Below, piece after piece: positions 25,700-49,673 of a stretch of 64,000 nt of DNA (the first letter of the stretch is position 1; every line of letters begins with the position of its first letter). The stretch comes from Caerostris darwini (Eukaryota), in NCBI GenBank assembly GCA_021605075.1, contig BPLQ01015363.1:899513-963512 (forward strand), in the 5' to 3' direction. A model generated the notes under the pieces. The model was not told the origin of the DNA, ran no database searches, and saw only the letters and a list, made by a program, of their open reading frames with translations. A program made the position numbers and the translations under genes.

Positions 25700-28500
25700 T
25701 GGCTCATAAGGCCCTCAGATTATTGCGCCATCTCAGCTGCAGTAGATCTTACTTCTGACCAGCTATTCCACCCCCGTGTGGTTCCTCTCATTTTCTACCA
25801 TTCGCCTCCATGTTAACATGAGTCTTCATCTTTTCCTTTTTCCTTCCGCCCATGTTAACGCTATTACTAGGATTTTAGCTGAAGACATTTTTAGTATGTG
25901 GCTAATCCATTTACACCTTCTTTCGATGTTGTTTGTGAGCTGTTCTTGTTTTGTTTGAATATCAAAATCTAGGTTTGATACTGTTTGTAGCCAAATAAAA
26001 TATAAAATTAAACAGTTGGCAAAATAGATGCTTTATAAAAATTTTTTAAATTTTTGTAAAGCATCTGCCAACTGTTTAATTTTATATTTTATTTGGTTAA
26101 TTTCCATGTTTCGGTTCCATATAAAAGGATGCCTTTTACTATTGAATTTAATATGTTGATTTTTATGTTTAACATTAGCCTGTTTGAACGCCAGGGGTTA
26201 GTTAATTTTTTAAAAAATTATGACACCTATCTCAGCATCAGTTTCCCCTTTTATATCTACTATTGTTCCAAGATATGTAAATCTATCAATATCTTCTATT
26301 TGGCCATTTTCCGATTTCACTGCACATTTAGTTTTCTCATTTATTCTCATTGTTTTGATTTTGTTAGTATTTATTTTCAATCCTACAATTTCTGATTACT
26401 TTTCAAAAATATTTATCCTGTGTTGCAGATCTTCAGATTTGCTGGTAAATAAAGCAATATAATCTAAATAACACACCCTTGCTTTACCTCTGTCTAGATG
26501 CTAATGGGCTCTGTCAGGTTTCCATTAACTTCTACCCAGCATTTTTAATCCCTGTCAAGTTCGTTAATGATATTTATAAATTTTCTGGGAATGTCATATA
26601 ATTTAAAAATCCTCCATGACATATCTCTATTAATAGAGTCGAAGGTTTTCTAAAAGTCAATAAAATTCATATACAATGATGTGCTAAATTCATGACTTTG
26701 TTCAATTATATTCTTTAAAGTAAATATTTGTTCGATTGTTCCTACTCCGCTTCTGAAACCGGCTTCAACTTGTTGATTATCACTCCTCCAAACACTTTGG
26801 CTGAAATAACAGGCATAATTCCTTTGTAGTTACCACAGATGGAAAGATCTCTCGTTTTGGAAATTTTTACGATTATAGATTCCCTCCAATTGTCATCTTT
26901 TCTGTTTTCCAAATTAAATTGAAAAGGGACTGTATTCGTTTAATTGTTCCATCAGTATCAATTATTAGCATTTCTGCAACGATTTGATCGCTGCCGCAGG
27001 TTTTTCCATAATCATTCTTAATTTCTATCAACGAAATTTCAGCCGTGTCAACAGAAAGGTTCGATGATATGCTAGCTGTTACCACATGATGTATAGCTTG
27101 ATCTTAATGCTTAACATTGAGTGTCTCCTTAAAATGTTCTCCCCATCTATCTTGAATTTCTTTTTCATTACTGAAGAATTTACCTTGTTCGTCTTTCATA
27201 TTTAGTTTTTGTTTGCTTGCACTTAAACTAATCTGTTTAATCGTTTGGTAAACTGCCCTACTTTTTCCTCGTTTAGCAGCTCTTTGTGCTTCAGAAGCAA
27301 GTGCTTCATAGAATTCTCTCATCCTTTCTCATTTCTTTTCACATTTCTATCAGCTTCTCTATAATTTTCCTTGTACTGCTGAAGTTGTTTTTCTAACTTA
27401 ATACTTTCTGATATATGCTTAATCTTCTTCCTTTATTCAATTAGTTTCCTGATTTTTTACCCGTAATACACTCTTTATTTGCTTTCTGTCTTTTTTCCCA
27501 TTAAATTTTGTAAAGGTTTTCTTTATTCTTTGTCCAGTTGTTCAACATTTTATGTATCATACCCCATTTCAACATCCAGTTCCTCAAACTTTTTTTTTGA
27601 GTTCAATGGCAAATGTGTGCTTTATATTTTTGTTCTTAAATTTAGCAATGTCAAAACCAAGTGGTCTCCTAATTTTATTTTTACGGCGTTTTTGAAGTTT
27701 GTTTCACATGCATCACCACTAAGTAGTGCTCGCTTCCTACATCTGTTCCCCTCCTTACTTTCACATGTCTCATAACTTTATAAATTTTCCATTAATAGCC
27801 ATGTGATCAGTTTAATTTTTTGTTTTCCCATTCGTTGACTTCCAATTCACCTTGTGAATTTGTGTCACCGGATGAATTTGTGTCAATATAGTTCCACCGA
27901 TGACTAGGACCGATTCGCAAAAGACCACAAACAATTCTCCGTGCTCATTCATTTGTCCTAGAGCTTCATTTTCCATCGATCGTTCATCGTCGCGTGCTTT
28001 TCAACTTTGTCCACGACTTTCTGTAGCTGGTCGTAGAAATCCTTTTCATCCTCTTATGCGTCGTTTGTTGGAGCGTAGACCTGTATAATTGTCATTTTGA
28101 TATACTTAAAAAAAAATCTTGCTTTAATTATTCTTTCATTGACTAATTCCCATCCAATCAAGTTGCTCCTTGCCTTCTCGTTAAGAATGAGGGCCACTTC
28201 TCCTTCATGTCTGTAATTACTTCCTGAATATAGTATTGTTTTGTCAACAACTGTTTTGATGTTTCCAAAACAGTTGATGACTAAACAATACTATGTTCAT
28301 GAAGTAGCTAGCTTCACGCATCCAAGAATATCAAGCTTATAGTTACTCATCTCATTTGTTAATTGCCTGGTCTTTCCAATTTGATACATGGTTCTCACAT
28401 TCCATGTTCCAATTTGAAACATTTGTTTTGGCTTGGGCATTGACTCCTTTCGCCTCAGAGGTTCTCGTGGACTTTCCCCCCTTCTCATCGTATGCGTATC
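25700..28500 (-). mobile_element. Degraded non-LTR retrotransposon (LINE) ORF2: AP-endonuclease N-terminus, linker, reverse transcriptase
   Basis: Minus-strand ORFs 28297..28488 (IGTWNVRTM...KLDILG), 27104..27322 (...RWGEHFKETLN) and 26873..27085 (DGTIKRIQSLFNLIWKTEKM). By-eye translation of 26400-26870 shows RT motifs NYKGI, FIDFRKAFDS, KQGCVL. Confidence 0.7.
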
Positions 28501-28970: not shown

Positions 28971-29244
28971 GGAGCATGATGGCCGAGTGACTAGCACTCT
29001 GGCGCTCAGTACCACAGGTTTCGAATTCGAATTCCGGCGGTGCCATGGATGTTTGTAGTGGTTCGGATACCTCTTTAAGCCGTAGATCCCGGTCTCACGT
29101 GACCGTAGAGAGTCACAGAGCCCAATCAGACTCTTCTCACTCGCGTCATTCCCAAAATTTAAATAGGCAACTCAGCTCTATTCACAGTGAGGTGATGCGA
29201 TGTGGCGTGGTGTGGTGTAGTGTAGTGTAGTGTAGCAGTAGTAG
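28971..29244 (+). mobile_element. tRNA-headed SINE copy with GT-rich minisatellite tail (gtgtag)n
   Basis: Head ATGATGGCCGAGTGACTAGCACTCTGGCGCTC...GGTTTCGAATTCGAATTCCGGCGGTGCCATGGATGTTTGTAGTGGTTCGGA, shared with the other copies. Confidence 0.7.
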
Positions 29245-29963: not shown

Positions 29964-30262
29964 TTTTTTTTTTTTTTTGGTTCTAATGCAGCTAGCAACC
30001 ATTTAGACAATTGCCTTTGATGCAAGTGCTGCATAGACATTACTCACTTTGCATTACCCAGGGGGCGCGTGTAACTTGATGGTAAGCCACGGACGCGGAG
30101 TAACAATGCCCCCGCAACGCTCTACGATCCTATTAGGACCGGGACCTACGGTTTAAAGTGGATTCCGAACCACTACAAACACCCATGGGGAAGCCGGGAT
30201 TTGAACCCGATACCTAAGGTATCGAGAGCCAGAGCGCTAGCCACTCGGCCATAAGGCCCCCC
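29964..30262 (-). mobile_element. tRNA-headed SINE copy (family A, full length) with poly-A tail (poly-T on + strand)
   Basis: Reverse complement reads GGGGCCTTATGGCCGAGTGGCTAGCGCTCTGGCTCTCGATACC..GGTTCAAATCCCGGC..TGTTTGTAGTGGTTCGGAATCCACTTTAAACCGTAGGTCCCGGTCCTAATAGG...GCTAGCTGCATTAGAA(A)n. Confidence 0.8.
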
Positions 30263-30570: not shown

Positions 30571-30845
30571 GTTGTTGTTACTAATAACCCCTGGTATAGA
30601 AAAGCCTACACCAGGTCCAGAAGACCCCGTCGCAGGCGACGGTGCGATGGCTAAGGGTAATATGCAGCTTCGCTGTATCGAGCTTCTCTGTTGACTAAAC
30701 CTCGACAACACTCCACGAGAGTATTAGACCGGGATCTACGGTTTAAAGTGGACTCCAAACCACTGCAAACATTCATAGCACCGCCGGGATTCGAACCCGA
30801 AATCTTTGATACAGAGCGTTAGCCACTCGACCATCAGCCTATCAG
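30571..30845 (-). mobile_element. tRNA-headed SINE copy with (AAC)n tail
   Basis: Reverse complement reads TGATGGTCGAGTGGCTAACGCTCTGTATC..GGTTCGAATCCCGGCGGTGCTATGAATGTTTGCAGTGGTTTGGAGTCCACTTTAAACCGTAGATCCCGGTCTAATACT... Confidence 0.75.
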
Positions 30846-32780: not shown

Positions 32781-33033
32781 CTGTTGTTGTTGTTTCTTAT
32801 CCCACTTGGCTGGCCAAGCCCACGAGCACATATGGACTCATGATTGAAGGGTAAGGAAGCAGCTTCTGTTGTGATGGAGCACCCGTAGGTAGAAGCCTGA
32901 CTTTTGCTCCGTGACGCTCTTACAGTCATAGAAGGCCAGGACCTACGGCTTAAAGTGGATTCCGAACCACTACAAACATCCATGGCACCGCCGGGATTCG
33001 AACCCGAAACCTGTGGAACCGAGCGCCAGAGCA
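32781..33033 (-). mobile_element. 5'-truncated SINE copy with (AAC)n tail
   Basis: Reverse complement reads ...GGTTCGAATCCCGGCGGTGCCATGGATGTTTGTAGTGGTTCGGAATCCACTTTAAGCCGTAGGTCCTGGCC...CTTCTACCTACGGGTGC...(AAC)n. Its 3' core is shared with the copy at 37934-38290. Confidence 0.7.
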
Positions 33034-33386
33034 ATAATTTTTTCTAATAGACATATATTTCATATTATGAAATATAGCGTTTTTTATATTTGGCGTACAG
33101 ATTTTTTAAAAAAAATATTATAATTTTTGAAAACAAGAATTACTGAATAAAAAAAGTAGCATTTTAAAAGAAGTTCTATTCGATATAAATATCTAAAAAT
33201 ATTCGTCTGCTCTGGGGAAAAAAAATATTATTATAATAATAAATAAAAAATTTCTCCCCAAAAAAATATTTATAAAAGTTTGATTTTCCTATATATAGCG
33301 TTCAAATTTCATCATCAAGAAAGAGAGAGAGTTTTATTTTTTTTTTTAATATATCTTCTCAACTAAAGGATTGATATAATCATATA

Positions 33387-36340: not shown

Positions 36341-36630
36341 ATATATAAGAACCAATAATTATTTTTAGAGAGAAAAAATTTGATGGCTTACAGTGCTATT
36401 CAAGAAAATGAACAGAAGTTTAATTTTAAGTTTTTTAATATCTTTTCCTGCAAAATATTTATATTTTAACAGAATATTCCTTAAAGTTTTAAATTTTTTA
36501 GAGACCACATTACACTGATTAATGTTAGTGAACATTTGAATAATGCTACTAATTCCATTAATATTTGTTTTTGCTTGTTATGCTATACCTAAAGCGTTTT
36601 ATCAGTCTTAATTATTATCTTATCTTACAG

Positions 36631-36699
36631 TTGTTTAGATTCTGATTCTGAAGATGGTAAAAATGTTTTTCTTGGTGGAAACCCTAGTCAGCTAGTCAA
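36631..36699 (+). CDS. TEP1: TEP1-like exon (SCLDSDSEDGKNVFLGGNPSQLVK)
   Basis: tcttacag|T acceptor, AA|gtaagt donor; phase links exon 6 to exon 8 without stops. Confidence 0.5.
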
Positions 36700-37689
36700 G
36701 TAAGTTATTCATTTCCTGCCTTTCAAGTTGTATATTTTTTCTGTTTATGTGAAAGTCAATGAATTATAGTGAAAATTCTATTTTTCCTATCTATGAATTA
36801 TTACCTGCTGTAATTAAATACGAGTATTATTGAGACGATCGGTCAAAAAGAAACCTTTTTTAGAAATAATGTATTGAGTGAACGAGAATACTTGTGCATC
36901 ATTTCTTTTACAATATCTCCTTCATGCTCAATACAAGCCTTTCAGTGCTTACATAATATTCAGTGTTGGCTGCACGTCTAGTCATTCACCATTTAGTTTA
37001 CCTCTTCATAAGATGGCAAATGCATATTTCACTTCCATCACCATATTTTGCTTCCATTCTTTGATGTATGAGGAATTTCGAGTTTTGCACTTTCATATTG
37101 TCGAACATCTGACGCTACTGATCTTAGATGAAAGTATCCAATGACCATTTATAGTCTGTTTTTATAACAATACTCATTTCTCTGCATTTTTCTGCTACCC
37201 ACTTGATATTTTTTACATTCCTACAATAATATTGCCAACTTATATGTCAGTGACATTACATTTCAAAATGCTTTTAAACATTTAAGGTTTTCATTTGACT
37301 CATCCATGTACATTTGTTACTTGACTTTTTTGTTTAGAATAATAGTTATTTGTTATTTTCTTTTCTTTCAATGTTTTTTGAAAAATATATTTTTATTTTT
37401 CATAAATTTTTATTACAATGTTAATGAATTTTTTTAAAAATATGTTTACCTACATCTTTTGTTAAAAAGCCTTTAAAATCATAGTGATATATTTAGAATT
37501 ATTTTAGTATAGCCTAACAACATAATTTACATTTGTCTAATCTTTCATTTTTACATGTTACATATTTTTTGTTTGTCATTAAATATTTGAATTTTTTAAT
37601 GAAATATAATTAGATGTGCTTATTTTCTTTTAAAATTTATTGGAATCAAATGATTAAATAATCATAAATTCTTCTGTTTCCAACAATAG

Positions 37690-37845
37690 GTTTATTGCTG
37701 AACGGTGTAATGGAGGGCAACTTACATATGTTGACAACATTGATCATAAATATGATCTTAAAACTAATGTGAATTCTGAAAAATTTAAAAAACTTGATTT
37801 GTTACCTAAACAAGAAAAGTTACCTGTGCTTACAAAAGTTCCTAA
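37690..37845 (+). CDS. TEP1: TEP1-like exon (FIAERCNGGQLTYVDNIDHKYDL...)
   Basis: caatag|G acceptor, CCTAA|gtaagt donor. Carry-over AA+A gives K then WHTVRVFISS in the next exon. Confidence 0.55.
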
Positions 37846-37933
37846 GTAAGTTTTTAAGTCATTTCTTGCTATTTTTTAAATTAATTTGAGTTCTGCCTTA
37901 TATGCATTTACTATAGTAAATGAATAATATCAT

Positions 37934-38290
37934 GCCCCATTCGTGGCTCAGCGGTAATGTGCGCTACTGGTGAGCATTAGGCTTGAGGTTCAATCCACTG
38001 GCGACATTGTTTCAAAAACGAGGAAACTCCTCATTGGCGTTTATGATGTTCAGCATATTACCTCGTTACGCAAATTGCCGGGTGGGAGTTTTCCGGGTTT
38101 TCTTTCATACGGTGTGCAAATGCGGTTTAGTTCTTCTAAAGGTCTCTCCGGAAGGCACTGCCCGTCTTCAGCGTCACAGAACGAAATCAGACTTCTACCT
38201 GCGGGTGCAACACACAGAATATTTCACAACTGAAGCTCCCCTTTACCTCCATCCATGAGTATTATACGTGGGATGTCTGTCCAGAAAACA
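37934..38290 (+). mobile_element. SINE copy with a different tRNA-like head (GGCTCAGCGGTAATG..GGTTCAATCC) but the shared 3' core
   Basis: Core AGCGTCACAGAACGAAATCAGACTTCTACCTGCGGGTGC...CCATCCATGAGT is homologous to 32781-33033 (CTTCTACCTACGGGTGC...CAATCATGAGT). The 3' end is uncertain and may extend to about 38540. Confidence 0.55.
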
Positions 38291-38689
38291 CTGAGGATGA
38301 GTCACAACCACATATCGTTCATTAAATAGTAGGCGCTCTTTAATTTTGGCATTCGATAGTTCGGCACATTCTATAATCCGGCACGGATCAACCGCTCGAT
38401 TTCAGAGTATTTTTATGTGGATTCAAGCATTTGTTGACCTTGACCACTACATCACGGCACAAAGCTGCTTGCGTTTTCTCCTGTTTATCGTAACTATCAA
38501 TTTTCATTTCAATACAGTGTGCACTGTATAATAAAATGTTCTCAAAGCTCAGAAAAGGTTTTTCGAGTTTTAATAAGCATGATCATGTAACTTACACAAC
38601 AAAACTTTCGATAATTAATCTTCTGGAAAGCTAAACTTTCATAACGAGTGACTTTAATATTGGTTCTTCGATAATGTATGATAAAAAAA

Positions 38690-39850
38690 AAAAAAAATAA
38701 TGGAAGAAATTAAGAACTTTGCTGCTCAAGCTGTAAAATCAACGAAAAGAAATCAAGACACATATTGAAGAAACCTTAACATGAGTTTCTTGATAGTGCC
38801 TTGTTCACTTGATTTTGTGCAAAAGAGTACGAGCTAAAACATGTAAGGTGCCTATGTTGATTGAAAAAGCTATACAATTTCATCGTATTCTAAATATAGA
38901 ATTGCTTTTATGTTTTCCTGTAGTTGACTTTAAAATTCGTCACGGACTTTAAAGATGGAATGTGGCTGAAAACAGCAGATCAACCAATGAAAATTCCCCT
39001 GAAAAATATAATAATACTTTTCGCAAACTCGTTGAACTGTGGGAACTAATCTGGGGTCAAGTTTACGATTCCAATGAAACTAGCCTTTTATGGGGTGTTT
39101 ACCAACTTTTACTGTGGCAAGTGGGGTGAAAATGTGCAAAGGGATTAACGAAAAATAAAGATGTATTGATCGTTTTGTTGTGTGTAAATGCTTCTGATGA
39201 CTAATCTGACAACTGTGCTGATTAGTAAATATAAAAAACCTATAGCTTTAAGAGGAATTTAAACTTGCCTATACATTAAGATGGACAGAGCAATTTATGG
39301 ATAACATCTGATTTGTTTTATGGACTGGTTTTTTCACCATTTTGTACCAGAAGTATAGGAAATCTTTAAGAAACGTGGAATGCCAGAAGACAACAATGAT
39401 TTTATTGTTAACAACTGTAGCTTGTAGCTATTCAGCTTGGTTTTCGGCTGTATTTTTGTAGATTACCTTTCACCAAATGTCACTCCCTTCATTTAGCCGA
39501 TGAATCAAGGCATGATTCAAAATGTATATTCTTTTTATAGAATATCTTTTGTACAAGGCCTTTTGGATTCTTACTAAGATGTATAAGACTTCCAAAGACA
39601 TTTTAATGTCAAAGATGCAATTTTTGCAATTGCCTTAACATAAAATTTAGGGAAAGAAGTGATGCTGATGCAAATTTTGATCTGATGATGAAGATGCGGA
39701 TCAACATCAAAGTATTATCTGTTTGATGTTATTAAAACTTTATTAACCTTCTATAATCTAGCATGTCAGTGCGCCCAAATATGTTGAACTTAAAATAGCT
39801 TGTACCGTGGTAAATACAAGACTCTACAATTTATCCATCATATTTTTACT
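38690..39850 (+). mobile_element. Degraded pogo/Tigger-like transposase fragment (DDE_1 region)
   Basis: By-eye multi-frame translation shows ...IWGQVYDSNETSLLWG..., ...KDVLIVLLCVNASDD..., ...PNMLNLK*LVPW.IQDSTIYP (like PnTTs.LQPlDqgiI), interrupted by stops. Confidence 0.4.
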
Positions 39851-40060
39851 CTGTACAAAATTAAATTCAGTTTTAAGTCTTCTGATGACTATTTTTTTTT
39901 TTTTTTTTTATGATTTATTATACATTGAATTATATGTTTAATTTTTACAGGAAAACTGTTAAGGCTTAAAAAACATTCTTGCTGCTAATTCACGAGAATA
40001 TAGAATGTAACATAATTTAAGAAATTATATTAAAAAATAATAAATATAATTAATAAATTA

Positions 40061-41557
40061 CACTCATGTCCATAAATTAAGGATAATTCAGAATCACACA
40101 GAAATTGAACTCTAAAATAAAAATTTCACCTGTAGAATTATCACACACATCTTGAAGAAGAATATGCAAATTACAGGAAATCACCAGATGGCGCGGATAG
40201 TACGTCACAATGACGAGAGTGTAAGAGAGGGGTATATAAGGAATGGTGGCAAAGAAGTAAAATTGTTCACAAGCGCTTTAAGTGCAATAACCGCATAATT
40301 ATGGCACAAAGGAAGCATTTGGATGATTTTTTACGTGGTAGAATTATCGGACGAGTGGAATGTGGACGTACCCAGCTGGAACTATCCCAGGAACTTGGAA
40401 TCGCCCAGAGTCCCATCTCCAGGCTTTGGCAACGATTAAAAGATGATGGTAATGCGAGTAGATGTTACAGCACAGGTCGCCCCCGAGTTACAACGCCGAA
40501 TGAGGACCGGTATTTAGCAGTTACTGCCAAAAGAAACAGACGGAGCACAGCATCTGACCTGTCTCGTCAGCTCTCTTCAGCTACCGGTACGACAGTTTCA
40601 AAGCAGACCGTGTACAGACGCTTAGGGCACATTGATCTATATGGTCGTAGGCCTGTCAGATGTGTTCCACTTACCGCAACTCACTGTCGCCTGCGATTAA
40701 CCTGGAGTAGAGAGCATGCATTGTGGACACCGCAACAGTGGTCTGGTGTGATGTTTTCCGACGAGTCCAGGTTCAGTTTGCAGTCTGATTCTCGCCGGAC
40801 TTTCATATGGAGATTGCCAGGTACCCGTTACCACCAAGAGAACACCATTGAACGACACCGTTACGGTGGTGCAGGATGGCTCGTTTGGGGAGGAATTATT
40901 CTTGGTTCCAGAACTGACCTGCATGTTCAGAGTGTAACGATGACAGGCCACATCTATCGGGATTTCATTCTGGAACAACATATACGTTTGTTTCGGGGCG
41001 CTATGGGTGCTGAATTGCTGTTTATGGATGACAACGCCCGTCCTCATCGTGCAAACATTGTAGACGAATGCCTTCAATTGGAGGATATCACCCCTATGGA
41101 TTGGCCAGCGTACTCACCGGACTTGAATCCAATAGAGCATGTGCGGGATATGCTTGGCCGACGAATTGCAGCCCGTCAACCCCCTCCCACCTGTCAACCG
41201 GAACTTCGGAGGGCATTGCTTGATGAGTGGTGTAATATTCCCCAAGATCAGATTGATAATTTGATACTCAGCATGCGTAGGCGTTGTAAGGCCTGTATTG
41301 CATCCTCCGGGAGACATACTCCATATTAACCATCATACTAACCATGTTATACTGTTTTTTGTAAATAGGTTCTTTTTTTAAATTTGCTCCAGGGAGTAAA
41401 AATCGCAATTTTTATTAATTATGTCAAACATATAGCATCTTTTTTGCTCTTTACCTTTTGACCTTTACCTATAGACTTTACAAATAAGTCAAATTTGTTT
41501 TGCTTCTGTCTCTTTCTTTGCCTGAACTTCATTATCTTTAATTTATGGACATGAGTG
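40061..41557 (+). mobile_element. Apparently intact Tc1-family transposon (1497 bp), TIR CACTCATGTCCATAAATTAAGGATAAT, TA TSD, single 342-aa transposase ORF
   Basis: TIRs at 40061-40090 and 41528-41557 flanked by TA. One uninterrupted ORF with HTH and DD34E motifs (FSDESRF, FMDDNARPH, YSPDLNPIEHVRD). Confidence 0.9.
40301..41329 (+). CDS. Tc1 transposase (DD34E), 342 aa, intact
   Basis: ORF track 40301..41329: MAQRKHLDDFLRGRIIGRVECGRTQ...WSDESRF..LFMDDNARPHRA..YSPDLNPIEHVRDMLGRRI. Confidence 0.9.
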   Translation: MAQRKHLDDFLRGRIIGRVECGRTQLELSQELGIAQSPISRLWQRLKDDGNASRCYSTGRPRVTTPNEDRYLAVTAKRNRRSTASDLSRQLSSATGTTVSKQTVYRRLGHIDLYGRRPVRCVPLTATHCRLRLTWSREHALWTPQQWSGVMFSDESRFSLQSDSRRTFIWRLPGTRYHQENTIERHRYGGAGWLVWGGIILGSRTDLHVQSVTMTGHIYRDFILEQHIRLFRGAMGAELLFMDDNARPHRANIVDECLQLEDITPMDWPAYSPDLNPIEHVRDMLGRRIAARQPPPTCQPELRRALLDEWCNIPQDQIDNLILSMRRRCKACIASSGRHTPY

Positions 41558-41599
41558 TATTATAAAATCTATAAATTTATATACACTGGTGGAAAATGA

Positions 41600-42200
41600 A
41601 ATCCCAACACCAAGAATTTAGTATAGTGGAATAAATGCACTTGTTCTTCGGACCTTCACTTCTGCTGTAAGTCCACTGTACCTACGACGTAGACAGATTG
41701 GCTCCAAACACTCACCTGGCCTCCTTCTAATCAACGTACGACATTAATACGAAAACTGCTCTCATTTGAGTACAAAACTGACCTTCCGCCCTCCAATGAG
41801 CTCTAGTTTGGCATCAACGAAGTAGCTGGTGATGGTAGGAGCATGGACACTACATGGCATCTGGCTTAGACTTGTCCCTCAAGTAATTGATATGTTATCG
41901 TTTGTTGCGTACTCTATGACCAATGCAAGCTCGAATTTCTGGTGCAGAAAGATGCGCTACATCCATGCGGAAAATATGGCATGCGGCATTGGTGACGTGT
42001 GTGCAGCCATACCCCTGTGTTCTTGAGATAGTACCTTTCCATGAGCATTGCTGCATACAATCATGCACAGGGAATACATACCTGCCAAATCTTTCTGCAA
42101 TATCACGGAAAGTTCATCTTCTTGCAGCTATATTAGATGGCCATGTTATCTCAATAATCTAATGATACTGCTTTTTTCATCTCCTGAAAGAGATTTCATT
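41600..42200 (-). mobile_element. Old Tc1-like transposase remnant abutting the intact Tc1 copy
   Basis: Minus-strand translation gives ...TFRDIAERFGRYVFPVHDCM..GHRVRNKR.HINYLRDKSKPDAM.CP.., resembling the Tc1 HTH-linker region, with stops. Confidence 0.35.
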
Positions 42201-43632
42201 ATTATTCTTACTTGCACAGTAAATATTCTTTAAAATTTCAATTTACATAATTACATTCACTATGCCATACAAACTAAACTTATTTTTTTTAATGCAGTAT
42301 CAATTTTATATAAAAAAAAATTTGCTGAAAATTGTGAAATATCCCTATTTTTTGCTGTCAAATATAGACAAATATTTAAATTTTTTTAAGGACACTATCC
42401 CATTTTGTCTATAAAAAGTGAAAAGCCATGGAACACTCAGAATATTATTCTTGAATGCATACCATAAAATTTCAAAGTAAATTAGTCCTGTACAATAAAA
42501 CGAAAAACATTTTGCAATATACACACACTTAATATAGGCACCATTGTAATGTAATTGCAAGTAATGTAAACACTAGCCAAGCAAAACAAAAATTTGAAAT
42601 CTTCATCAGTTTGTTGCTGGACTTTTCGTTTTGATAAATTACAGATGGTTTGCAAGCTACATAAGCAGAATAGTCTATATAACAAACATTGATGCAATAT
42701 AATTTATTGATGCAGTTAATAATTAACATGTTATTTATGTGTTATAAATATAATAAAATTCAAGAGGAAAAATATATTTGTTGTTATTGCATTATATAAA
42801 TTCAGTGATCCCTGATTAAAATTAACAGGTGAAATACTTTCACCGGTCGCAGAACATTGTCAAAAACATTCTAGAGTAAGGCATTATTAAACAGTATTGT
42901 GAATTCATATTAACTATACTGTCTCCTATTAAATGTTTTATGTGTGTTACTCCTCAGAATTTAAAACGTTGCTAAAAAATGCTAATTTAAATGTAGGTAA
43001 TAAAGATTAGGTTTACACAGCAAAATCTTGATTTTCATTACGATTAACTTTATTTCAATAACAAACATATTTTAACACCTCTGAAAAATATAAATTTTCT
43101 TATTTTATGATAGAGAATTATTGTTTCTAAGCAAATATTTTACTGAAGAGATATTTTTTAAACTTTGTTTTATAACTCTTTTGTTTTTTTTTCCGATGTA
43201 TTGTAATTTCAATGTTGAAATCAGTTTTAATAATACTTATCTTATTAAATATATTTAGTTGATATTTAATATGTTGTGTATAAGATCATTCTAGAAAAAG
43301 ACTTTTGCAGATTGTAATATTTCACATCTGATACTAATAATTTAAAATGCAAAATATTCTGCAAATTAAAAATGTTTATCTAGATATTTATGGAACATTA
43401 TCATTTTTAATCTACTTGTAATTTGTTTCAAAATTTTAATAGTCATGTATGTGACAGATTTAGATTTAAATGACAATGTAATAATTTTTATTCTAGTGGT
43501 TTTTATTGTTGTATATCTACTTCCTATAGAAATAGACCATTTAAAATATGCATTATATAATTCAAAGAGTATTGATGAAACCTGATTTTTTTTATTTAAT
43601 TATTTTAGTTTAAATGATCACATACAATTATT

Positions 43633-43953
43633 TACTTTTGTAGAAAAACAGCTATTCTCAATACTTTTTTATTGCAGGAATATAGTGCACCTTATTTTCC
43701 ATACATTAAAAAACCATTCAAGTGATTTCATTGCCACGATTATTAACGTCAAATGCAATATTTTGATTATAATTATCACATACAGCATACATGAAATATG
43801 CTGTATGTGATAATTATAATCAAAATATTGCATTTGACGTTAATAATCGTGGCAATGAAATCACTTGAATGGTTTTTTATTGTATGGAAAATAAGGTGCA
43901 CTATATTCCTGCAATAAAAAAGTATTGTGAATAGCTGTTTTTCTACAAAAGTA
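43633..43953. repeat. Long near-perfect palindrome (arms about 157 bp at 43633-43790 and 43798-43955, 7-bp spacer CATGAAA)
   Basis: Right arm is the reverse complement of the left arm with 2-3 mismatches (TACTTTTGTAGAAAAACAGCTATTC...CACATACAGCATA | TATGCTGTATGTG...). The centre motif CAGCATACATGAAATATGC recurs at 43982-44000. Confidence 0.9.
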
Positions 43954-44199
43954 ACTCCTTACTTACTCCTTACTTTTGCCAGCATACATGAAATATGCAC
44001 TATACAAACTTCACATTCGTTTTTGTTTAATATATATGACTTTTTGTATGAAAGGATTTAATTCATTAATCATATTTCTTAGCTGATTTGAATATTTTTC
44101 TGTAGTTTATGTTTATATCAAAAGCATGTGTACAGCTATCTTTTGTAATTTATATTTAAACCAGATTAATAATAAATTGCTCACTGTATTATCTTTTAG

Positions 44200-44376
44200 A
44201 TGGCACACTGTTCGCGTCTTTATCTCATCTACATTTAAGGACATGCATTGTGAAAGAGACTCACTAATCCGATATGTGATGCCAGAGTTAAAGAAAAGAG
44301 CTGCATCTGTATTTGTAAAAGTCAACGAAGTAGATCTTAGATGGGGTATCACAGAAACTGATTGCTGCTCTAAACG
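44200..44376 (+). CDS. TEP1: TEP1-like exon (DUF4062 N-terminal half: WHTVRVFISSTFKDMHCERDSLIRYVMPELKK...DLRWG)
   Basis: ttttag|A acceptor, AAACG|gtttgt donor. Classic DUF4062 motif as in NWD1/TEP1; ORF track 44126..44395. Confidence 0.8.
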
Positions 44377-47300
44377 GTTTGTACTATTTTTTTAAATTTG
44401 ACTTTTTAAAAGACATTCAATTACTATATATATATATATATATATATGTATAGTAATTAATGTGGTACAAATTAAAGTGGATTATGTGAAAGAAAATAAT
44501 TGGTCTTGATTTTTTACTAAATGTGTACTTGGTCGATTAATCTTTTTAATTTTGAGTTCATTCACACAAGTTTTGGAAAATCATCTTTAGATTTTGTTTG
44601 TCAATAATGTTGGATATTATTAGCTAGAAATGTTATCTGGAAGTTAATTTTCATCGATTAACAGCAATTCAGTTTCACTGTTTCATTCAAGAATGTATAA
44701 AACTCGATTAACATCTTTACAGTTTCTGAAACATAAATGGAATTCATTTAATGCAGTAAAAAAAATGTTTGATTCTATTATTTGAAATAAAAAACCGTAA
44801 AACTTCAACGTTTACAAATAGATTATTAAAAAATGTTAACAATTGAATTTTATGAATTAAAGAATGTTAACAACTGAATTATATGAATTAATGAATGTTA
44901 GCAATTGAATTATATGAATTTTAATATTTATTTACTGTTAACTTGAAGTTTCATTTTATTATAAATTATAAACATCTTGTTAAAAAAAAATTGTATTTAT
45001 ATACAAATAGTTTGCATAGTTAAAGAAGCATATTTTAAGGTAACTTGCCTCTAAATCAAAAGTTAGACAAAATTTGAATAAATTTTTTGCTGTGTAATAT
45101 ATTAAATATTGTTAAAAAAATTTATTTTGAGAGCTTTTTTTTATTACAATAAACTGTATTGCATAGTGTTTTGCATTTATTCTATGACAATAAAAGTTTA
45201 TCTTCGACTACTAATATATCTAAATAAAAACAAAAATCTATATTTTTAACATAATAAAGATAAATTTGAATATTTTAATTGCATGTTTTTATTTGCATAC
45301 CTTCATTTTTCTTTCATTGTACATTCTTATAACAAAAAATAATTACTGACAAAATGTGTTTTATATTAATTTATTGGCTTCATGACTTCCGTTATTTAAC
45401 AATACTCTGTAATTTTCATTATATTTGAATAAAATATTTAATAATAACATTTTTTCATTAAGTAAAATATTTTGAGTAATAATGATGGCAAGATTTGTTT
45501 AATAGTACGATTATTGGCATGTACAATATATTCTATCAAACGATTTTTAATTCAGTTTCAAATACTAATTTATTGTATGCTGAAAAAGAAGTAATTTTAA
45601 GGTTTCTTCAGAAAAATTTGTCAGGTATGAGCAAAGCGGAAACAAATCTTTTTTAATTTTAAGTGAGGAAAATATAATTTAAAGAAGTCAAAAGTACAGT
45701 GTGTTATATTTCACTCTTTCCTATTGGAGAAGAGTAGCTCCATTACACTATAAAACAGGCTTTTTTTTTTTAGTACTTCTTTATTAGTAAGGTGCCTGTT
45801 AGGATTCTGTCCTGGAACTTGGAACTACTTCAAAGTAAATAAAATTAAGTTTATTATTATCAACCAGGTGCTGCATTAAATGATTAAATAAAAAAATTAT
45901 ACATAAAAGAAATATATGCATACAAGACAGATAGCAATGGTAAGCAATGTAGTCATTTGATAAACAAAGTGGGAATACTTGACTTCATATGTAGCTGAAT
46001 GACTGCTGATTCAACATGTAACTAACTACTGATTTAGCAACTTATGCAGCATAATAGTTCATATCCAATATGCCTGCATTTTAGTACTGTTATACTGATG
46101 CTTATAACCTGCATGTTCGAAGTACTTCTGAAAGAAAGCAGCTCTTCTAAATATGCAGTAATTGTAATATATGAACCTATGTGTTAATGGTTTTAAATAT
46201 ATTTATGGTTTTATAATTCATCTATGATCTCTATAATATTTTTAACTTTATTATTTTATACAATATTAATCAAAAGTGTATATCAAAATTGCTGCAATTA
46301 TAATATTTTGTTATTGTTTATTTTCTTCTGATAATTTATATTAAAACCTGAAAACGTTTGTATGTATGCTTATTTTCTGCATAATTAATTGGAAAAGTTG
46401 ATAGTCACAAAATATGCAAAATATTCTTGGTGAAACAAGAAGGAAAATCACTCATTATTTAGATTTTTCAAACTCTTCAGGTTTTAAAATCTAAAAAAAA
46501 AAAAGATTAATTATCGTAAAAAAACTGATTTGCAATTTCCTTTTCCTAATCACATGGACTGATGAGTTTTCTCTTGAACAGAGGAATTAAAAATTGAATT
46601 ATTGAGTTCGAAAAATTATGCTTATTTAAAATTATGGCATTCGATTAGTTTATCAACCAACTTATTTAGTTCCTGTACTATTTCAAAGTATAAGCATATA
46701 GCTTGGAAGTAAAAATATTTTAACTTATATAAAATATTTATGTGTAAAAATCTCTCAAGTTATGTTTTCATGATCAGAAAATGTTACATTTTAAAATTCT
46801 TGCATCTGTGTAGTTTATTACCACTTTAAAATATTATCATCTAGCTTTTAAATAATGTCCATTTGGTAAAAAAAACTATCTACTTAAAAAGTAAAGTGAA
46901 TTTGTCGTGCAATGAACAATTTTTTTTTTTTGTCTAAATTTCAGCATTAGTGAACCACTATTGAAATTTTAGTAATCGTTAATCAATTTAAAAAATTTCC
47001 GACTATTTCAAAAATACTTCAATTTTAATTAATCAAAAAAATTAAATCGATTTTCTGGTTATTTCAAGCACAAAAAATTATATTACTCTTCTTTAATATA
47101 TTTATCTCAGAATTATATCATAAACAGATTTTTATTAGTTTTTATTGATGACGAAATTCCATTGCCTTATCTTCATTAAGTAGGTCGTTATCTCAAATTT
47201 CTTTCCACTGTCATCTCCAAAGCAGCTGAATTAGTCTTTCTTCCAAAAAGCTTTCCATGATTTTATTTTTTCATTTAATTCTTCAGATTTCTTTGATTTA

Positions 47301-47816
47301 TTGTTTAAAATTCTGTATTAACTTTCAGATTATTTATTTCTAATTGACTTACTAAAATCTCTAAAACTTTATTATTAAATTCTTTGTAAATGTGCAAAAT
47401 ATATTTAAATGTAATTTATTCATTTTGAGGAATAAGTTATTTTTTAAATTCATTTAAAGTCTGTAGAATTTAGCAGCATGTATACATTTTGTTGAATAAT
47501 AAAAATAATTTTAGTATTCTATTTTTTTATTTATTTAATGTATATTTAGTTTATTAGCATTACATATGTCCATTTGCGTGAAAAATTATTACTTTATTAG
47601 AAATGAGTTATATTTGGTGTTATGCCTTTTTTTGCATACAAGATGGATTTGTCAGAACACAATCCTTAAAAATACATTTATTCTAAACATATTTGCAAAA
47701 TTGTAATAGAGCTAATAAATTTATACTTTTTGAAAAAAACAACTCATCTATTTAAGTTTTTATAATTTAAATCCCATTTATATATTTTTTCATTGTTTCT
47801 ATATGTATATTTTCAG

Positions 47817-48053
47817 AGCTGCTGAACTTTGTCTACTAGAAGCTCAAAAATCGGATTTATTTATTGGAATTTTGGGTGATAGATATGGCACAATTTATAA
47901 TTTTGACCCTCCAGATTCCCCAGATCTTCAATGGGTGAAGGAATATCCTCATGGTTTGTCAATAACAGAACTTGAAATGTATGCTGGGGCTCTAAAAGAA
48001 AAGTCAATAAAGAAAAAGGCATTCTTTTACATCCGAAATAATTCATTCCTTAG
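47817..48053 (+). CDS. TEP1: TEP1-like exon (DUF4062 C-terminal half: AAELCLLEAQKSDLFIGILGDRYG...SITELEMYAG)
   Basis: ttttcag|AGCT acceptor, CTTAG|gtaggc donor. CG carry + A gives R, in phase with the previous exon; ORF track 47803..48057. Confidence 0.8.
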
Positions 48054-49084: not shown

Positions 49085-49198
49085 TCAAATGCCTGAAAAA
49101 TGGAGAAAGGATTTTGATTCTGAAGATCCAGAATCAAAACAAAAAGTTGAATCTTTGAAAGCAAAAATTCGATCAAGTGGATTTACAGTTTGTGATGG
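49085..49198 (+). CDS. TEP1: TEP1-like exon (SQMPEKWRKDFDSEDPESKQKVESLKAKIRSSGFTVCDG)
   Basis: cctag|TCAAAT acceptor, GATGG|gtatgt donor; phases consistent. Confidence 0.55.
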
Positions 49199-49673
49199 GT
49201 ATGTAGTTATAACTAAATAACTTAAAACTTAAATAACATTACTTACTTAACTAAATAAGTTAAATAACATAATGGTTTTATCTTTAAATTCGTGTTTTAG
49301 GCATGATTTCTGAATTATTAAATATTTATTTCACAGATATTTGGCTACTTATTGCTTGCACCTGTCTAACGGAAAAGTATCTAAGTTTTTTTGCAAGATT
49401 AGTGAATATTTATATAAATCGACCTCCATAATTTAGCTTTAGAAAAAATTTGAAAAATTTTCAGCTTATACACAAAATATGTTATATCTATTTTTCTTTT
49501 GGAACAGCATATTTATATAACTTTATATTATGAAAGTTATCAAAGACAAGAAATTTTCGTTATTTTGCAATTATTGGGCACTCATCATTATTGTACAGTA
49601 AATATGGTAACTTTTTTTTGCCATTTTTCATAAAAAATATACTTACATGATTTTTTTCTTTTGACATAGTAAT

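Follow-up and report, generated by a model that had tools for sequence, protein, structure and literature searches.

A 64,000-nucleotide stretch of the genome of the spider Caerostris darwini (GenBank assembly GCA_021605075.1, contig BPLQ01015363.1, positions 899,513 to 963,512, forward strand; hereafter the window) contains a long, near-perfect palindrome in an intron of a protein-coding gene. The window has a G+C content of 29% and carries several Tc1/mariner copies, a minus-strand leucine-rich-repeat (LRR) gene and a plus-strand split DUF4062/NACHT gene. In a protein search with the first three exons of the DUF4062 gene, the best hits were entries named 'telomerase protein component 1' from the orb-weaving spiders Caerostris extrusa (78% identity) and Trichonephila clavipes; the gene is called TEP1-like here. 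Mapping of the C. extrusa protein P0001 with tblastn placed exons at 36623-36700, 37688-37846, 44198-44377, 47815-47979 and 49086-49217, with the AG acceptor of the DUF4062 exon at 44198-44199. The palindrome is located on the sense strand, inside the intron between the second and the third of these exons (Table 1).

The palindrome measured 323 bp in total and consisted of two arms of 158 nt each, which were 99% complementary in a repeat scan and in a direct comparison of the arms. Mismatches were found at two sites only, positions 43658 and 43706, where the left arm has T and the complement of the right arm has A. In the direct comparison, the inverted match ended abruptly at the outer arm limits. 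A sequence-only reading of this DNA had described a near-perfect palindrome of about 320 bp with few mismatches and a 7-nt spacer, about 250 bp upstream of the DUF4062 exon; these measurements bear it out, the distance from the end of the right arm to the exon being 245 nt. That reading had also placed a third occurrence of the core motif just downstream, at 43982-44000. The motif is real, but its coordinates were 2 nt off and it is the second direct copy, not a third: the window has exactly two occurrences of the 19-mer CAGCATACATGAAATATGC, one in the palindrome centre (43783-43801) and one at 43980-43998, against a chance expectation of 0.01.

The folding calculation proposed in the sequence-only reading gave a strong hairpin. 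As RNA, the palindrome segment folded into one uninterrupted hairpin of -250.1 kcal/mol, compared with -63.8 ± 4.6 kcal/mol for shuffled sequences (z = -40), and as DNA it folded with -175.7 kcal/mol (z = -42). Since both folds were far below those of the shuffles, a palindrome by chance was excluded. Open reading frames (ORFs) of 54 and 89 amino acids were present within the palindrome and across the DUF4062 exon, respectively. Exact look-ups of both products and of the Tc1 transposase gave no identical recorded protein, and two protein searches gave no match near 100% identity. An influence of the hairpin on splicing, which had been suggested from its position beside the acceptor, found no support, because 245 nt is well outside the usual branch-point/polypyrimidine zone; the exon boundary is also identical in C. 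extrusa, which is free of the hairpin.

Table 1. Features of the palindrome, the limits of its intron and the matching segments of the Caerostris extrusa locus (L001).
Feature	Position in window	Strand or direction	Position in L001	Remarks
Upstream TEP1-like exon, 5' limit of the palindrome intron	37688-37846	+		tblastn with P0001 residues 73-125, 94% identity
DUF4062 exon, 3' limit of the intron	44200-44377	+		Pfam PF13271, E = 1.2e-5; tblastn with P0001 residues 125-184, 95% identity
Left arm	43632-43789	+	21351-21506	Ancestral intron sequence and proposed template of the copy; ortholog contiguous with its flanks
Spacer CATGAAA	43790-43796			7 nt
Right arm	43797-43954			158 nt; ancestral TATGC (43797-43801) plus putative new copy (43802-43954)
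Pre-existing mini-hairpin GCATA-CATGAAA-TATGC	43785-43801	+	21502-21518	5-bp stem, 7-nt loop; identical in C. extrusa
Putative new 153-nt reverse-complement copy of 43632-43784	43802-43954	+		2 differences
Filler CTCCTTACTTACTCCTTACTTTTGC	43955-43979	+		25 nt at the return junction, stuttered, partly templated; absent from C. extrusa
19-nt direct duplicate of 43783-43801 (CAGCATACATGAAATATGC)	43980-43998	+		Single copy in C. extrusa
Aligned segment	43318-43801	forward	21041-21518	BLAST
Aligned segment (right arm)	43797-43954	reverse	21506-21351	BLAST; same bases as the left arm
Aligned segment	43980-44422	forward	21500-21940	BLAST

The orthologous intron of C. extrusa was contained in a 36-kb gene locus (L001; GCA_021605095.1, BPLR01003961.1); a 23-kb locus of T. 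clavipes (L002) was compared as well. Window positions 24578-59340 were collinear with L001 3-36456 at 91-96% nucleotide identity, and the substitution divergence between the two species was 3.7% over 25,382 aligned columns. At the palindrome, a global pairwise alignment showed a single clean gap of 197 nt between flanks of 95-96% identity. The C. extrusa sequence ...TTGTCACATACAGCATACATGAAATATGCACTATACAAAC... equals the window minus 43802-43998, and these 197 extra bases are made up of a 153-nt inverted copy, a 25-nt filler and a 19-nt re-copy of the junction. L001 21351-21530 contained one arm, one 19-mer (21500-21518) and no filler, in the order left arm, spacer, TATGC and then directly ACTATAC (...TTGTCACATACAGCATACATGAAATATGCACTATACAAACTTCAC...). 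The single 19-mer of C. extrusa was aligned by BLAST to both copies in the window, and the right arm had no counterpart of its own. The C. extrusa version folded with -23.4 kcal/mol (z = -0.8), which is nothing unusual. Among 21 indels of at least 12 nt in the 25-kb alignment, the palindrome indel alone had a long nearby reverse-complement match (76 nt exact, versus at most 10 nt for all others). As judged from this alignment, the palindrome appears to be a singular event in the region and not a regional habit.

The junctions of the extra sequence are informative. At the inner junction, the inverted copy begins directly behind the mini-hairpin, which is present in both species. Extension of a 3' end TATGC paired to GCATA predicts exactly TGTATGTGATAATT..., as found at the start of the new arm. 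Because the loop of the mini-hairpin sits at the centre of the large palindrome, the latter has a spacer of 7 nt. At the outer junction, the filler contains ACTCCTTACTT twice in tandem (43954-43964 and 43965-43975). It also has TTACTTTTG (43970-43978), a 9-mer with which the left arm begins and whose reverse complement ends the right arm. The 19-mer behind the filler is probably the key junction signature of the copying event.

We consider it likely that one complex mutation in the lineage of C. darwini, an inverted duplication by fold-back (snap-back) template switching, left the palindrome as its scar. The new sequence is the reverse complement of immediately adjacent sequence, and a close relative is without the copy and otherwise collinear (the outgroup gave no polarity). 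A short inverted repeat is present at the switch point in C. extrusa, exactly at the palindrome centre. The return is near the departure, 19 nt behind it, and is more complex than a single switch-and-return. In the proposed mechanism, a growing or broken 3' end (...GCATACATGAAATATGC-3') would depart from its template at the equivalent of position 43801, and its terminal TATGC would pair with the GCATA located 7 nt upstream on the same strand, or at the equivalent place of the opposite strand, landing at 43784. The polymerase would then copy 153 nt of upstream intron backwards, as far as 43632, and dissociate a second time. One or two abortive mini snap-backs or slippages would produce the 25-nt filler, and the end would rejoin the original template at the equivalent of 43783, 19 nt upstream of where it had left, which would create the 19-nt duplication. 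Alternatively, the duplication might result from the fill-in of a staggered break. Equally, a staggered break repaired by synthesis-dependent microhomology-mediated end joining (SD-MMEJ), or by snap-back synthesis by DNA polymerase theta (Pol-theta), could have the same outcome. That the insertion is lineage-specific, which polymerase or pathway acted (replication-fork template switching, microhomology-mediated break-induced replication or Pol-theta-type synthesis-dependent end joining) and whether the switch was within or between strands, we infer from the product.

Three further similarities near the palindrome were noted. The last 10 nt of the filler, TTACTTTTGC (43970-43979), equal the start of the C. 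extrusa left arm (TTACTTTTGC-AG). At 43632-43641 of the window, both arms have T instead of C (TTACTTTTGT-AG), unlike the filler. This mismatch may be due to chance at one base, or the T may have arisen after the event and spread between the arms by gene conversion. A direct similarity of 26 nt (81%) between 43601-43626 and 43759-43784, both ending in ATCACATACA, has a spacing of 158 nt, one arm length. It was rejected as a part of the event, since it is already found in C. extrusa and predates the palindrome; it is probably a chance similarity in AT-rich DNA. A window-specific insertion of 62 nt (43256-43317) is located in the palindrome intron as well, 315 bp before the palindrome; its beginning matches the adjoining sequence weakly in inverted orientation (20 nt at 80%; 10 nt exact), and it contains ACTTTTGC, which is present in the filler too. 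We do not claim this insertion as a second template switch; its best nearby reverse-complement match was 10 nt, like those of the other indels.

The arms themselves give an indication of age. They share nine differences from C. extrusa (seven substitutions and two indels). At both sites where the arms differ from each other, the right arm, the copy, keeps the C. extrusa base A and the left arm has T, from which it appears that the template acquired both substitutions after the event. The arms diverge by 1.27%, roughly one third of the regional species divergence of 3.7%. This lower divergence suggests that the copying event postdates the split from C. extrusa.

Several points weigh against this account. 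The filler is only partly explained, and the copied tract of 153 nt is far longer than the 30-55-nt stems of a study of microRNAs (miRNAs) born by template switching. For arms dating from the species split, the Poisson probability of two or fewer differences would be approximately 0.03-0.07, two differences being weak statistics; the same probability was 0.006 when all nine shared differences, indels included, were counted. With T. clavipes as the outgroup, the exons and a Tc1 element could be aligned, the palindrome intron could not. Since the outgroup intron was unalignable, polarity rests on parsimony (one event versus two) and on the low arm divergence. That the palindrome is real in the organism we infer from its complex junction, the two arm substitutions and the collinearity, which is unbroken on either side.

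The timing would be different if the palindrome, the filler and the 19-nt repeat had been present in the common ancestor and C. extrusa had deleted exactly 197 bp through slippage or recombination of the two 19-nt repeats, while the arms in the window were kept alike by arm-to-arm gene conversion. The fold-back origin would remain unchanged, and only the time and the lineage would shift. Deletion between the repeats 43783-43801 and 43980-43998 does yield the exact C. extrusa sequence, and the age estimate comes from two arm differences, with a wide error. Long palindromes are generally known to be deletion-prone (for a review, see PMC7999016). The C that the filler shares with C. extrusa, at a place where the arms both have T, might point to subsequent conversion between the arms. 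Nevertheless, an ancestral palindrome requires two events and ongoing gene conversion instead of one event, it has no support from the outgroup, and the arms diverge by much less than the region; we consider it unlikely. A still smaller probability was given to an artefact of sequencing or assembly, in which a fold-back chimeric read, or a snap-back of the polymerase during library preparation, was fixed in the consensus, or in which, conversely, the C. extrusa assembly collapsed a real palindrome. Strand-displacing polymerases and long-read library preparation are known to produce snap-back chimeras. However, the structure is in the middle of a contig and collinear with C. extrusa for kilobases on either side, its junction is complex, and a chimera at read level should not outlast the consensus. 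At the two sites where the arms differ, the copy has the ancestral base and the template the derived one; this would be unexpected for an in-vitro copy of one molecule, and the differences are not homopolymer-type errors. A collapse in C. extrusa is opposed by its sequence, which had no N bases at the palindrome site.

Two other origins were considered. In the RNA-templated one, a nicked or broken ...TATGC end would anneal to GCAUA of its own precursor messenger RNA (pre-mRNA), a reverse transcriptase, e.g. one encoded by a long interspersed nuclear element, would copy the RNA, and the 19-nt duplication would be a target-site duplication (TSD) from staggered nicks. The TSD size range of target-primed reverse transcription includes 19 nt, and the 5' ends of retrocopies are often messy, so the flanking direct repeats and the untidy junction would both fit. 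The template is in a sense-strand intron, which would be transcribed. Neither end of the insert has a poly(A) tract, though, no reverse-transcriptase gene was seen among the large ORFs of the window, and a DNA fold-back gives the exact register at the mini-hairpin without a second molecule. The products of the DNA- and RNA-templated routes are indistinguishable by sequence, and we regard the RNA route as highly improbable. The sequence-only reading had offered a miniature inverted-repeat transposable element (MITE) or foldback element, inserted at this site, as one candidate, and the shape of the palindrome, with long terminal inverted repeats and a tiny loop, does fit. Moreover, the genome has Tc1/mariner copies with intact transposase ORFs and many differences from C. 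extrusa in the presence or absence of transposable elements, and the outermost TA of each arm could pass as a TA TSD. The comparison with C. extrusa contradicts this candidate: the 'empty site' holds the entire left arm, so at most half of the unit was inserted, and that half copies its neighbour. Three of the four properties examined (empty site, TSD and termini) were not those of a MITE or foldback element. There was no TSD at the arm ends, where the flanks ATTAT and CTCCT (...ACAATTAT/TTAC... and ...GTAA/CTCCTTAC...) show no direct repeat, and neither the filler nor the 19-nt duplicate at the junction is a feature of transposons. Local alignments of the palindrome ends with the Tc1 terminal repeats (TACACTCATGTCC...) scored 10-21, within background (median 15, 95th percentile 21). 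A search for other copies of the palindrome or its arms, by which a MITE family might have been recognised, found none in the 64-kb window or in 59 kb of sequence from related loci (C. extrusa, 36 kb; T. clavipes, 23 kb). Metagenome and viral contigs scanned for exact 27-mers gave 0 matches, which is uninformative as these collections are without spider genomes. Insertion of a MITE is hardly credible on these data, whereas the locus-specific hairpin, named as the alternative in the sequence-only reading, is upheld; its origin by a fold-back template switch was not among the proposals made there. Hairpin-opening footprints of hAT/RAG-type excision (P-nucleotides) are far shorter than 153 nt and were rejected as a source of the inverted copy.

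The palindrome might have consequences at the RNA and the DNA level. If the intron is transcribed, its pre-mRNA could fold into double-stranded RNA (dsRNA) of 158 bp, a plausible Dicer substrate, and the DNA could extrude a hairpin or cruciform and be a fragile site. With more than 150 bp and a spacer of 7 nt, it is of a size at which palindromes are commonly considered unstable. Unstable palindromes have been reviewed (PMC7999016, in excerpt). Most likely, the palindrome has no function and is a young, lineage-specific mutational scar. There is only a very remote chance that it is a functional hairpin-RNA (hpRNA), endogenous small interfering RNA (endo-siRNA) or miRNA gene maintained by selection. 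Its 158 bp of near-perfect dsRNA, if transcribed, and its position on the sense strand of an intron, which would be transcribed with the host gene, would suit such a gene, and template-switch events are a documented source of new intronic miRNA hairpins (PMC10710096). Yet the hairpin is not conserved, being absent from the sister species, its arms are already gathering mismatches, and no complementary target was found within the window. Against the Rfam 15 miRNA families, the best scores of the palindrome were 31-45 bits, below the gathering scores of 53-100. These sub-threshold hits were to several unrelated miRNA families, most with nearly equal scores on both strands; we regard them as generic, because any perfect hairpin gives unrelated matches of this kind on both strands. 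ARAGORN found no transfer RNA (tRNA) gene in the window. It is also unlikely that we are looking at a newborn small-RNA (hpRNA/endo-siRNA) locus diced from the intronic hairpin, or at a fragile site tolerated long enough for two substitutions. If true, the newborn locus would be a species-specific hpRNA locus missing from the sister species and born in one fold-back switch, and its hairpin, at 158 bp, would exceed several-fold the miRNA-sized ones that have been ascribed to template switching so far.

Elsewhere in the window, two Tc1/mariner copies with an intact transposase were located at 40047-41560 (plus strand, 342-amino-acid ORF) and 60265-61772 (minus strand, 341-amino-acid ORF). They are 96-99% identical to each other, and their terminal inverted repeat begins with TACACTCATGTCCATAAATTAAGGATAAT. 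Relatives in C. extrusa (L001 1434-2912) and T. clavipes (L002 18075-19591) are approximately 93% identical, while host exons of the window and T. clavipes are 76-84% identical and the introns are unalignable. This conservation, far above that of the host DNA, makes the element a candidate for horizontal transfer or very recent shared activity. A 4.1-kb block (38225-42331) in the palindrome intron, including the Tc1 copy at 40047-41560, is absent at the orthologous point of C. extrusa (L001 20114/20115), and the C. extrusa copy at L001 1434-2912 is absent at window position 25996. As each species has a copy that the other lacks at the orthologous point, the presence and absence of Tc1 differ in both directions. 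A repeat family of approximately 100-140 nt (28971-29107, 30118-30260, 30726-30825, 32921-33036 and 58229-58370) with a tRNA-like GGGTTCGAATCCCGG box looks like a short interspersed nuclear element (SINE), although ARAGORN called none of these repeats a tRNA. One SINE-like copy, 58229-58424, is a window-specific insertion of 196 nt compared with C. extrusa.

Other differences and neighbours concern the host gene. Window 50532-52647 (approximately 2.1 kb), which includes host exons 52099-52275 and 52472-52640, the latter with the P-loop motif GTPGCGKTS, has no counterpart in C. extrusa. In its place there are 2.3 kb of unrelated sequence without N bases (L001 27728-30017), in which an ORF (...KLCSKWVPRELTIDQKQQRLD...) looks like a mariner transposase fragment. 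The C. extrusa annotation has the host gene as two separate genes flanking this segment. The segment may have been replaced, the ortholog may be pseudogenised or disrupted, or the assembly may be wrong here. The large LRR gene (18438-22444, minus strand), which lies upstream of the TEP1-like gene, has long ORFs dense in leucine-rich repeats (LRR_8, E = 1.7e-70), and the same neighbour is annotated in C. extrusa. Just past the DUF4062 exon, a (TA)n microsatellite (44419-44486) has small palindromic matches, and a stretch of 65 nt including it is absent from C. extrusa.

If the fold-back origin is correct, the locus is a textbook-quality natural case of a long, perfect hairpin arising in one step from unstructured DNA. 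Its value would be that the copy-free sister sequence has been kept, that the priming microhomology is visible and that the junction records the stutter and return of the polymerase. It would mean that short-range template switching can write inverted copies of approximately 150 nt in the animal germline, above the sizes usually screened, and that such copies mimic MITEs when one genome alone is read. The palindrome would also be a dated, lineage-specific substrate for studying how long a palindrome of this size (more than 150 bp, 7-nt spacer) persists in an arthropod genome, and whether new intronic hairpins supply the siRNA pathway. No new biological system is indicated.

Among known systems, template-switch mutations come first. 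The four-point model of Loytynoja & Goldman (PMC5453318) leaves extra switches of the filler type explicitly outside its scope. Single template switches make perfect hairpins de novo in the introns of primates and rodents, with stems selected at 30-55 nt (PMC10710096), and hairpins and miRNAs born in this way have been described (PMC10710096, PMC8794818). The palindrome shares with template-switch mutations (Ripley quasi-palindromes, four-point model) that one event would place an inverted copy of adjacent sequence and turn unstructured sequence into a perfect hairpin. A sister lineage free of the copy, an intronic location and mismatches gathered after the event are likewise in common. In terms of the four-point model, points 1 to 4 would be 43801, 43784, 43632 and 43783. 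In contrast to the template-switch miRNA study, the tract of 153 nt gives a stem of 158 bp, three to five times the length of the stems reported there. In contrast to the four-point model, the return is not clean: more than one switch is needed to account for the 25-nt filler and for a return 19 nt upstream of the departure.

Templated inserts made by Pol-theta or SD-MMEJ generally range from a few nucleotides to a few tens. Accounts of Pol-theta snap-back and SD-MMEJ with templated insertions (PMC4912351, PMC5068794, PMC5728401, PMC2943611), as far as their excerpts go, resemble the palindrome in priming by microhomology (here a 5-bp hairpin), in repeated dissociation and re-annealing, in stuttered filler of local origin and in inverted inserts at the junction. 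Unlike them, a tract of 153 nt would be exceptionally processive, and the break and the enzyme are not demonstrable from sequence. The formation of palindromes from short inverted repeats after a break, in fold-back inversions, as the first step of breakage-fusion-bridge amplification and in small de novo palindromes at amplicon junctions (PMC3734650, PMC3834830, PMC7999016), is again similar in the excerpts: a pre-existing short inverted repeat lets a resected 3' end fold back and prime, and the repeat with its spacer becomes the centre. The products differ, being usually hairpin-capped or dicentric chromosomes and palindromes of kilobase-to-megabase scale in tumours or yeast. For the palindrome in the window, only 153 nt would have been synthesised before the end rejoined the same chromosome, and a small insertion in the germline would be the result.

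Two further systems resemble the palindrome mainly in shape. Drosophila hpRNA loci, reportedly described by Okamura et al. and Czech et al. in 2008, are said to produce Dicer-2- and AGO2-dependent 21-nt RNAs and to derive from their complementary target genes. They have in common with the palindrome a long, near-perfect inverted repeat that would form long dsRNA if transcribed, but the arms in the window derive from the intron itself. MITEs and Foldback elements are similar in their two long inverted arms, short loop, AT-richness and non-coding nature. In contrast to them, the unit in the window is single-copy in the sequences compared and without a TSD, one half of it being the resident ortholog and the other half a local copy. 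The mutational kind is already known, and the example in the window is an unusually long and clean one.

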